Shown in pieces: positions 24,869-26,413 of a stretch of 32,000 bases of DNA; within the stretch, counting starts at the first letter, position 1, and each line of letters starts with the position of its first letter. The notes under the pieces were generated by a model. The model saw only the letters and a program-made list of their open reading frames with translations. It was not told the DNA's origin and did not search any database. The stretch comes from Delftia acidovorans NBRC 14950 (GTDB lineage: Bacteria; Pseudomonadota; Gammaproteobacteria; Burkholderiales; Burkholderiaceae_C): positions 54,810-86,809 of the forward strand of contig NZ_BCZP01000024.1 in assembly GCF_001598795.1 (NCBI RefSeq), read 5' to 3'. Both the position numbers and the translations under genes were made by a program.

Positions 24869-25519
24869 TTAAATAGGTTCGCTCCTAAGTCGGGCCTTTC
24901 CAAGGTTATCTCGAAGAAACTGTGGAGCACTATTGCTAGTCTGAAAAACAATGCTCACGTTGTTGAAGATTACCGCAGAGACTGAACGCCAACCGTAAGG
25001 CTCAAATAACTCGTTGCTAGGTACAGGACCATCATCGAACCAGTGATTTATTTTATTTATGTAGAATAATATATCTGTTCTTTCCTTCATGCCGGGTAAA
25101 TAACGGCTATTAATGGAATTTAAATGCTTCAAGACTAGCTGAGCTGCGTCTGCGGGGAATAAGTCAATCGCAAATCTTGATTTTATGTATGATTTTCCAT
25201 TGCCGTGTAGAGAGTTATTGCGAGCCTGCTTAGCCTCTTCGTGTCTGCGGCGCCCTTCGTCCATGATCTCCTTAACCTCGAAAGCTGCATCTTGGTAAAA
25301 AACATCAGGGGGGTCTTGCGGGCTGCAGAAAACCTGAGAGTCGTCAACGCCAATATGAAGATTGGTCAAAAAATCGACTGTATTTCTCCACTCACGCCAG
25401 TTTTTAAATTTCCTAGAGAATCGATCATCGCCCAACTCAGGTTCCGGAGGGTCTGGTATAGACGGCATTGTTGCCAGTAAGGGTTTATGTAATTTAGAGC
25501 GAGACATGGGAATATACAA
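24869..25519 (-). CDS. Hypothetical protein with a PD-(D/E)xK nuclease-like motif
   Basis: The protein is 216 aa from TTG 25519, or 212 aa from ATG 25507. PPDVFYQDAAFEVKE has the spacing of a restriction-endonuclease-fold core: D72 at 25304-25306, E81 at 25277-25279 and K83 at 25271-25273, in track numbering. There is no signal peptide or TM segment. It starts 18-30 nt after the TIR gene stop on the same strand. It might correspond to a DUF-type putative endonuclease family, but I cannot verify that. Confidence 0.6.
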   Translation of the reverse strand: MYIPMSRSKLHKPLLATMPSIPDPPEPELGDDRFSRKFKNWREWRNTVDFLTNLHIGVDDSQVFCSPQDPPDVFYQDAAFEVKEIMDEGRRRHEEAKQARNNSLHGNGKSYIKSRFAIDLFPADAAQLVLKHLNSINSRYLPGMKERTDILFYINKINHWFDDGPVPSNELFEPYGWRSVSAVIFNNVSIVFQTSNSAPQFLRDNLGKARLRSEPI

Positions 25520-25537
25520 GCGCGATGTTTTTCCTCA

Positions 25538-26413
25538 TTACATGCCATAATATTTTGAACTGAAGGAAACAGTTATAGGCCCACCATCATGCACGCACAT
25601 AACATTTACCTTTAACTTTTTCTTGTGATCATAGTAGGTGTGGCAGTGTGTCTGTATTCGGACTAGATCCAGTTCGCTGGGGTTGATGCTTAGTGCACCC
25701 AGTATTGGCTCTGGATCGAACTTTTGGTTTTGATTGAAGGGCGCAGTACGCTTGAGATCAATTTCAATGAAGCTAACATAGCTACCCTCCCGCTCTAAGA
25801 ACATTCTGCATTCATCATTTTCTACGATGATGTTGCCTGCCTCGTTAAGGTCACCACCAACCGCCTCAAGAGCCTCTTCGATTTTCATTCCCATGTACTG
25901 AAAAGGTCTATGGAATGGTCTAAAAAGAATAGGCAGATTGAAGGTGGTAGCACGGTCAAGCGCCTCGCCCAATGTGGCTCCCGTGTGACTTGTATCAAGA
26001 ATTGACTTGTTGAATACAATGCCAATACTTTCTACAAGTCGTTTCAGTCCCAAGTGATATTCTGAATCATTGGTGAAGTCAGCGTAAAATTTCCCAAGCA
26101 AAAAACCAGGGAGGTCGCACTTCCGATAGATCAGAGGAAGCACCTTGATTTTTCGTCCGGAAATTTCTTGATTCATTGCAACATCTAATTCGCGCTGGAC
26201 CCATGGAGATGCAATTGAATTGGGGGATAGAACTGCAGCGACGTAATCTACTTCATCCAAACCTTGGCGTATTTTTTCAATGAGAGATTCACCTACTTTG
26301 ATTTCGGCTTCATCGAGCCAATACCTGATACCGTGGGCCTCAAGATCAGCTGCTAACTTACGGACGAATGTCTTGTCGGTGTACGTGTGGCTTAAAAAAA
26401 TGCTCTTGTTCAC
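25538..26413 (-). CDS. TIR-domain protein with an uncharacterised C-terminal domain
   Basis: Residues 1-135 carry the bacterial TIR pattern: SIFLSHTYTDKTFVRKLAADLEAHGIRYWLDEAEIKVGESLIEKIRQGLDEVDYVAAVLSPNSIASPWVQRELDVAM. The conserved glutamate is in WVQRE (E75, codon 26189-26191). Residues from about 140 to 291 match nothing I recognise. The GTG start at 26413 has AAGGAGAG 4 nt upstream. Confidence 0.85.
   Translation of the reverse strand: MNKSIFLSHTYTDKTFVRKLAADLEAHGIRYWLDEAEIKVGESLIEKIRQGLDEVDYVAAVLSPNSIASPWVQRELDVAMNQEISGRKIKVLPLIYRKCDLPGFLLGKFYADFTNDSEYHLGLKRLVESIGIVFNKSILDTSHTGATLGEALDRATTFNLPILFRPFHRPFQYMGMKIEEALEAVGGDLNEAGNIIVENDECRMFLEREGSYVSFIEIDLKRTAPFNQNQKFDPEPILGALSINPSELDLVRIQTHCHTYYDHKKKLKVNVMCVHDGGPITVSFSSKYYGM

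Follow-up and report, generated by a model that had tools for sequence, protein, structure and literature searches.

Introduction

The described bacterial TIR proteins closest in sequence to the one presented here, the group of AbTIR, TcpB/BtpA and 'molecular chaperone Tir' (PDB entries 8g83, 7uxr, 7uwg and 4lqc), are single polypeptides without a fixed partner gene. In these proteins a coiled-coil or other N-terminal region precedes a C-terminal TIR domain, and members of the group make cyclic ADP-ribose (ADPR) isomers. A comparable one-protein logic, with a TIR-type NAD+-cleaving domain joined to an uncharacterised or sensing domain, is found in bSEFIR, PDC-S66 and stand-alone TIR-SAVED proteins. 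In Thoeris (types I–XI and further predicted types), a ThsB TIR protein with a catalytic glutamate adjoins the gene of a potentially toxic enzyme, the signal-activated effector, which combines a signal-binding domain (SLOG or Macro) with a toxic domain. Here we describe a 291-residue protein with an N-terminal TIR domain and a conserved C-terminal domain (CTD), termed TIR-CTD, together with the DUF1780 protein encoded beside it. Both lie in a 32,000-nucleotide (nt) stretch of Delftia acidovorans NBRC 14950 (contig NZ_BCZP01000024.1, positions 54,810–86,809), which is referred to as the window and numbered from its first letter.

In a systematic Thoeris survey, effectors are described as very diverse, with DNases among the predicted types, and stand-alone TIRs were left out (Yirmiya 2025, 10.64898/2025.12.03.692087). 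Compact defence systems are known to travel in integron cassettes, in which defence genes are abundant (Kieffer 2025, Darracq 2025 and Getz 2025, as cited in 10.64898/2026.03.17.712381); a TIR cassette is not mentioned in the two integron-defence preprints that were compared. DUF1780 (PF08682, 'putative endonuclease') has been classed in the PD-(D/E)XK superfamily with its function unknown, and according to a 2012 survey it is confined to Pseudomonadales, has a conserved context and shows no horizontal gene transfer (PMC3424549). Literature searches returned no paper on this TIR family, its accessions or the function of DUF1780, and no published activity for any DUF1780 member.

An initial annotation, made from the letters of the window alone, read the two genes as a TIR cassette, either a Thoeris-like signalling pair with a new nuclease effector or a TIR effector whose infection sensor might be the nuclease-fold protein. 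Its domain calls, the foreign origin of the DNA and the neighbouring genes all stand; the dedicated two-gene system is not supported. We regard TIR-CTD as a stand-alone TIR effector that integrons mobilise and that carries a new conserved domain; at the level of architecture it matches no PADLOC or NCBIfam model. We favour, with moderate confidence and from comparative sequence evidence, a reading in which the two genes are independent single-gene modules, TIR-CTD being a self-contained sensor-NADase and DUF1780 a separate, solo nuclease.

Results

Co-occurrence of the two genes

The TIR-CTD gene (25538–26413, minus strand) begins with a GTG codon, with AAGGAGAG ahead of the start at 26418–26425. 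Its product has exactly the sequence of the D. acidovorans protein WP_051940750.1 in NCBI, and the window locus matches KN046795.1 of assembly GCA_000741825.1. The DUF1780 gene (24869–25519) follows on the same strand and encodes 216 amino acids (aa) from a TTG codon or 212 aa from an ATG at 25507, the position at which its homologues begin. Depending on the start codon, the gap between the genes is therefore 18 nt (25520–25537) or 30 nt, and both open reading frames (ORFs), their strand and their spacing are as first annotated. A terminator scan found no terminator-like site between the genes, and the 18-nt spacer contains no attC-like hairpin (fold z-score 0.29). The GC content is 0.438 for TIR-CTD and 0.435 for DUF1780, against approximately 0.65 for the host, in agreement with the description of the pair as lying in foreign, AT-rich DNA.

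Co-occurrence was assessed by running profile hidden Markov models of each family against the six-frame ORFs of all loci, and tblastn versions of the test agree. A DUF1780 gene was present in 0 of 61 non-Delftia TIR loci (52 of them with a full-length TIR-CTD), and a TIR gene in 0 of 72 non-Delftia DUF1780 loci. Clustering of the ORFs within 3–4 kb across 84 CTD and 73 DUF1780 loci revealed no recurrent neighbour for either gene. The largest clusters comprise 4–6 loci and correspond, for the CTD set, to vertical Nostoc synteny around DUF4365-CTD genes and, for DUF1780, to a few genes at inconsistent positions; no small ORFs of 25–110 aa were found as conserved partners. The pair was seen only in D. 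acidovorans assemblies and in one further contig, L004, which shares both genes and 84 nt of the host flank with the window at 96% identity. The L004 DNA upstream of the TIR ribosome-binding site differs, and similarity ends at 26424.

Because homologues of TIR-CTD and DUF1780 do not co-occur elsewhere, an outcome that the initial annotation had itself listed as contrary to its proposal, its central inference fails. The two-gene cassette is not borne out, and neither a Thoeris-like signalling pair nor a TIR effector with a nuclease-fold sensor is supported. The accompanying remark that the arrangement fits no named TIR architecture was correct, with neither PADLOC 2.0 nor NCBIfam holding a model for the pair.

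The TIR domain

Pfam TIR_2 (PF13676) covers residues 5–127 with an E-value of 1.4e-29 (103.5 bits against a curated cut-off of 28), and the domain as delimited by Pfam and PDB matches comprises residues 1–128 (26030–26413, minus strand). The closest solved chains are the bacterial TIR proteins 7uwg, 7uxr and 8g83 (E ~1e-13), one entry being named NAD(+) hydrolase AbTIR. Trp71 (codon 26201–26203) and the predicted catalytic Glu75 (codon 26189–26191; both codon positions checked) align with the Trp and Glu of the 7uwg WxxxE motif, and each is at least 98% conserved among 53 full-length sequences, which bears out the assignment of an N-terminal bacterial TIR with a conserved Glu75. At the domain level the 291-residue protein is an ordinary bacterial TIR, and it is predicted to cleave NAD+ through the WxxxE glutamate. 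Plasmid TIR proteins of Agrobacterium and Pseudomonas veronii are 54–57% identical to the domain, and full-length coverage is reached by 1 of 159 plasmid matches.

TIR-CTD shares with the AbTIR group the homologous TIR domain, the WxxxE glutamate and the absence of a fixed partner gene. However, its TIR is N-terminal and is followed by a conserved 145-residue domain that the AbTIR group lacks. The PADLOC models that match do so on the TIR part only (PDC-S66, 3.8e-23; bSEFIR, 4.7e-13; and a retron-TIR model), those of bSEFIR and PDC-S66 within residues 1–130. The PDC-S66 alignment pairs residues 5–94 with model positions 151–240 of 282, placing the TIR in the C-terminal half of that model, and does not extend over the full length. 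Since the CTD matches nothing in PADLOC, TIR-CTD is not a member of the PDC-S66 or bSEFIR families.

The C-terminal domain

The CTD comprises residues 148–291 (25541–25972, minus strand), as defined by alignments and an AlphaFold model, and is joined to the TIR by a poorly conserved linker of low model confidence (residues 129–147). Residues 129–291 have no match in Pfam, NCBIfam, PADLOC or PHROG, so the C-terminal ~150 residues remain as unplaceable by family as the initial annotation had found them. Within the family, mean pairwise identity is similar in the TIR (65%) and the CTD (63%) and lower in the linker (43%). The CTD alignment contains approximately 20 invariant polar and aromatic residues and the motifs PFHRPFQYxGM, FDxEPxLGxLSI and THxHxYYDH, with FSSKYYGM at the C-terminus. 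The predicted structure (pLDDT 90.4, pTM 0.85) consists of helices followed by two antiparallel sheets. Neither the CTD nor DUF1780 has a match in phage genomes or PHROGs.

A profile search recovered only 99 clusters among 1.84 billion representative proteins, and the CTD family is small and sharply bounded. Elsewhere the CTD follows a TIR, a restriction-endonuclease-like DUF4365 domain or a Ser/Thr protein kinase; other members combine it with a zinc ribbon and a transmembrane helix, with an uncharacterised cytoplasmic domain and a transmembrane helix, with a signal peptide alone, or with a signal peptide and PG_binding_1. Examples of direct fusion are P0154 (411 aa, with the kinase) and P0143 (317 aa, with DUF4365). 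The kinase and DUF4365 fusions on one hand, and the zinc-ribbon/transmembrane and signal-peptide members on the other, imply that the CTD occurs on both sides of the membrane. We read it as a putative binding or sensor module usable on either side, and the invariant residues would fit a ligand pocket.

Distribution of TIR-CTD

Scanning one genome per species for CTD relatives yielded 80 loci, 52 of which encode a full-length protein of ~291 aa that is 52–81% identical to that of Delftia. The full-length family spans roughly ten phyla: Pseudomonadota (Beta- and Gammaproteobacteria), Desulfobacterota, many Cyanobacteria, Chlorobiota (Chlorobaculum), Acidobacteriota, Planctomycetota, Bacteroidota, Armatimonadota, and, in metagenome-assembled genomes (MAGs), Bacillota and Patescibacteria (Paceibacterota). 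All but one of the 52 are intact, and the GC content of the gene is mostly lower than that of its flanks, by up to 0.26. Together, the intact copies, the patchy cross-phylum distribution and the GC deficit point to purifying selection on an often-transferred gene. The sole disrupted copy (L006:5719–8406) has one in-frame stop, and 500 nt away is another TIR gene, fused to an FGE-sulfatase domain. Neighbours of TIR-CTD in other genomes include scattered defence genes (Gabija, PD-Lambda-1, PD-Lambda-2, NYN, PDC-S05 and mad3).

Integron cassettes

In 15 of 53 TIR-CTD loci the gene is bounded by attC-type ends, against 1.5 expected from shuffled controls. Thirteen flagged loci have a GTTRRRY box 17–43 nt 5' of the start and the exact reverse complement of that box 6–37 nt past the stop. 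Five genera (Reinekea, Chromohalobacter, Methylophaga, Halopseudomonas and a gammaproteobacterial MAG) share nearly the same 26 nt ahead of the start, and four of these also share nearly the same 51 nt beyond the stop. In a Sedimenticolaceae locus (L041), the gene sits between two copies of a ~130-nt repeat, each running from CTAAC to GTTAG, and this repeat is present at least 13 times at cassette-like spacing. The whole of this MAG chromosome segment (L041:1–16870) forms a sedentary chromosomal integron array, its attC-like repeats spaced 620–2360 nt apart; it also contains a 76-nt tandem repeat at 9643–9927. The attC candidates fold as long imperfect hairpins (z-scores -8.4, -6.2 and -3.7).

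Integrases were searched by tblastn with an IntI1 sequence as the probe. Divergent integron integrases lie 4–5 kb from the TIR-CTD gene in L023 and L025 (43–48% identity over 313–319 aa), and an intI homologue adjoins a CTD gene in L078. Distant homologues of DUF1780 carry the same cassette-end signature in 12 of 58 loci (2.35 expected), and in L145 an intI gene lies 1.8 kb from one of them. All intI matches (L023, L025, L078 and L145) are 43–60% identical over 313–325 aa. In addition, short fragments resembling an integron-integrase N-terminus occur immediately upstream of the TIR-CTD gene in two Nostoc loci (L013 and L057, ~7540–7740), which suggests decayed integrons in cyanobacteria. The hairpin scanner gives many false matches in GC-rich DNA; the cassette assignment therefore rests on the shuffle-controlled 7-mer test of end complementarity, the L041 array, the shared ends and the intI matches. 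Relatives of both genes are thus comparable to described integron defence cassettes, being likewise single-ORF units with attC ends, some of them a few kilobases from intI.

The DUF1780 protein

DUF1780 is the sole Pfam match of the second protein and spans its residues 35–211 (E 4.1e-13; 49.8 bits against a cut-off of 27); the protein is clearly homologous to PA4535 (PDB 1y0k; 9.7e-11). Asp72, Glu81 and Lys83, whose codons were checked and lie within 25271–25306 (minus strand), are invariant in 38 homologues, as are Glu84, Asp87, Arg90, Arg92 and Glu95. These invariant residues and the classification of the family (PMC3424549) place the PD-x8-ExK motif noticed initially on a restriction-endonuclease fold. 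The clade of the window protein has FEVKE with the canonical lysine, whereas PA4535 has FEVFF, its lysine being said to have moved to another helix (PMC3424549); the window motif is the more canonical. With its Asp-Glu-Lys site intact, the protein is probably an active nuclease. No signal-binding domain (SLOG, Macro, SAVED or CARF) was recognised in it, and PADLOC and NCBIfam gave no match.

Relatives were collected from 64 metagenome loci and several long contigs. While sharing family membership with PA4535, the clade of the window protein differs in that it belongs to Comamonadaceae and metagenomes and occurs in low-GC, mobile DNA and sometimes in integron cassettes. Its Comamonadaceae members are 44–70% identical, occupy low-GC patches and have unrelated neighbours. 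Integrases, transposases, ParE toxins, DNA methyltransferases and a few PADLOC candidate families are encoded nearby (63 loci). Given these low-GC patches and varied mobile-element neighbours, DUF1780 behaves as a solitary mobile gene. In two Comamonadaceae loci (L088:6545–7615 and L091:6215–7651), a small same-strand gene lies 3 to 60 nt upstream of DUF1780. These upstream genes are unrelated, encoding a 150-aa transmembrane/coiled-coil protein and a 241-aa YozE_SAM-like protein, while DUF1780 is constant. A CTD shared among the upstream genes was considered and rejected, as none of the three products compared (150 aa, 241 aa and 748 aa) matched the CTD or PADLOC.

The Delftia hotspot

The pair belongs to the low-GC cargo of a strain-variable hotspot (24850–29300, from the GC profile). 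Directly upstream of TIR-CTD is a Septu system (26792–28907, minus strand) comprising the PtuA ATPase (27432–28907) and the PtuB HNH nuclease (26792–27448), with PADLOC E-values of 1.5e-141 and 8.4e-80. The two genes are adjacent and overlap by 17 nt, which substantiates the adjoining Septu-like pair of the initial annotation. On L004, no Septu genes were detected within the 1.2 kb upstream of the pair. Together with the difference in GC content (0.34–0.36 for the Septu genes, 0.44 for the pair), this indicates that Septu and the TIR/DUF1780 genes are separable blocks. Within the 378-nt spacer between PtuB and TIR-CTD (26414–26791), a small hairpin at 26517–26533 could terminate the Septu transcript. 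A 98-aa ORF (26515–26811, minus strand), which overlaps ptuB at its end, found no homologue in the libraries searched and is probably spurious rather than a gene.

A NERD-UvrD helicase gene (21304–23124, plus strand; PADLOC C3a187, 1.6e-174; Pfam NERD and UvrD_C) lies 1.7 kb away (about 2 kb in the initial annotation) and flanks the hotspot. It is also found in four of six other Delftia loci (called in L161, L163 and L164, and as a DNA match at the end of L165). The cargo edge is marked by a 3' fragment of a DUF1501 gene (23848–24237, minus strand) that matches profile positions 254–379 of 390 only, whereas L165, also from Delftia, has intact DUF1800 and DUF1501 genes at the same site. DUF1800 and the 5' portion of DUF1501 were lost from the window, either when the cargo inserted or through a deletion. 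The site is bordered by PepSY and 125-aa genes on one side and by a gene of 145–148 aa with NERD-UvrD on the other. Six other Delftia genomes (L160–L165) carry different cargo between these borders: a reverse transcriptase with insertion sequence (IS) elements, a patatin-like gene, VanY with a pentapeptide gene, or a helix-turn-helix gene with an IS. The site is therefore a strain-variable hotspot in Delftia, and both genes look like horizontal acquisitions that came to lie side by side next to Septu. The island has no Rfam match, and the window contains no tRNA.

A second low-GC patch (13000–15000; GC 0.47–0.55), between genes for a LysR regulator and a PAS histidine kinase, contains ORFs of 243 aa (13810–14541, minus strand) and 113 aa (14603–14944, minus strand), neither of them matched by Pfam or PADLOC, and appears to be a further small foreign insert.

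Discussion

The distributions of the two genes favour independent single-gene modules. In the mechanism proposed for TIR-CTD, the CTD, as a ligand- or protein-binding α/β module, would detect a cue and drive assembly of the N-terminal TIR domains. The assembled TIR would then cleave NAD+ through Glu75, and depletion of NAD+, possibly with cyclic-ADPR by-products, would halt growth of the infected cell. A bolder version, which we put forward tentatively and with less confidence than the independence of the genes, holds that TIR-CTD is an undescribed single-gene immune or abortive module spread by integrons across phyla. The CTD would then be a new sensor that drives a TIR NADase, DUF4365 or a kinase in the cytoplasm and also acts outside the membrane, probably reading a conserved host or envelope cue rather than a phage protein, and it may have recruited DUF1780 in Delftia.

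Several observations weigh against the reading as independent modules and against the mechanism proposed for TIR-CTD. The two genes are 18–30 nt apart with no terminator between them and equal GC content, and they are kept together in L004 despite different upstream DNA; local co-transcription of TIR-CTD and DUF1780, possibly with co-function, would account for this. A sensor of fast-evolving phage proteins would not usually retain 60–65% conservation across phyla, and the predicted extracytoplasmic location of many CTD family members (signal peptide or transmembrane anchor) is awkward for a cytoplasmic phage sensor. Many TIR-CTD neighbours are housekeeping genes. The PADLOC scans covered 150 neighbours per gene and gave scattered matches, which were counted without a matched control, so no statistical claim on defence enrichment is made. 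Foldseek searches of the CTD against the PDB and BFVD gave weak matches (TM-scores 0.37–0.56), the highest to a phage zinc-ribbon protein (0.56) and those in the PDB (0.37–0.44) to an extra domain of bacterial SCP proteins, the TagH C-terminal domain, DUF4309 and a BLIP-like protein; at such scores, a 'BLIP/DUF4309-like' label is a lead rather than a result. In the window, unlike in described defence cassettes, there is no attC candidate between 24.3 and 29.7 kb, the flanks are unstructured, no hairpin lies between or after the two genes, and the IntI1 probe found no intI, so that a cassette origin of this copy is deduced from its relatives. The anti-phage role of TIR-CTD is itself putative, as is a defence function of the TIR-CTD cassette.

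Some of the same observations would be explained if TIR-CTD were not an anti-phage protein. It might be a selfish or addiction-type toxic cassette, a stress- or envelope-responsive NAD-consuming regulator whose CTD binds a conserved cell-wall or metabolic ligand, or a Tcp-like effector directed at eukaryotic hosts, with DUF1780 unrelated in each case. The very high cross-phylum conservation is more suggestive of a conserved ligand than of a phage target that evolves fast. The occurrence of the CTD behind signal peptides, transmembrane anchors and a peptidoglycan-binding domain, its weak fold matches to extracellular bacterial domains, the many housekeeping neighbours and the similarity of the TIR to the Agrobacterium and P. 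veronii plasmid proteins all agree with such a role. We nevertheless consider it unlikely. The Delftia gene adjoins Septu within a hotspot; in other genomes its neighbours include matches to Gabija, PD-Lambda and other defence systems, and integron cassettes are described as rich in defence genes (10.64898/2026.03.17.712381). Moreover, a constant domain that is combined in turn with TIR, restriction-endonuclease-like DUF4365 or kinase is typical of immune effectors, and no secretion signal was seen in the TIR-CTD sequence by eye, the only way in which it was inspected for one.

A Thoeris-like pair confined to this lineage, recently assembled in Delftia from two solo genes, in which an ADP-ribose-derived signal made by TIR-CTD activates the DUF1780 nuclease, is less probable still, and we give it little credence. 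The tight same-strand spacing, the equal GC content and the L004 copy are as expected for such a pair, as are the proximity of the TIR in sequence to stand-alone bacterial TIRs including AbTIR, the intact Asp72/Glu81/Lys83 site and the DNases among the diverse Thoeris effectors (Yirmiya 2025, 10.64898/2025.12.03.692087). As in Thoeris, a TIR with a catalytic glutamate adjoins a potentially toxic enzyme gene. The conserved TIR–effector adjacency that defines Thoeris was looked for and not found in the 133 other loci (0/61 and 0/72), so the pair is not a Thoeris member. DUF1780 homologues occur without a TIR neighbour, and TIR-CTD homologues have no fixed partner and are in many cases single-gene cassettes. 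The DUF1780 protein is a single domain of ~210 aa with no recognisable signal-binding domain, in place of the two-part Thoeris effector, and neither DUF1780 nor PF08682 appears in the available text and tables of the survey.

That DUF1780 regulates the TIR protein, holding it in check like an antitoxin or switching it on as a sensor subunit, an option raised in the initial annotation and in keeping with the tight spacing and probable co-transcription, is very improbable, given that the 61 other TIR loci (52 with the full-length gene) lack it, which implies that the TIR needs no such partner, that its invariant catalytic-type Asp, Glu and Lys residues point to an enzyme rather than an inert binder, and that Pfam, PADLOC and NCBIfam reveal no homology to known antitoxins or sensors.

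With two independent modules as the preferred reading, the locus is a cautionary case, in which tight spacing and a defence-island address mimicked a new TIR signalling system until comparative genomics separated the genes. DUF1780, known so far as a Pseudomonas core gene, is extended by a mobile clade with an intact PD-ExK site. A TIR family of the kind set aside as 'stand-alone' in Thoeris surveys proves to be strongly conserved, cassette-borne and present in many phyla, and its previously unannotated CTD is also found in proteins with a nuclease fold, in kinases and in periplasmic proteins. Should the single gene confer protection against phage, TIR-CTD would add a compact member, with a new sensor domain, to the known defence genes, and would usefully illustrate how integrons carry immune genes from one phylum to a distant other.

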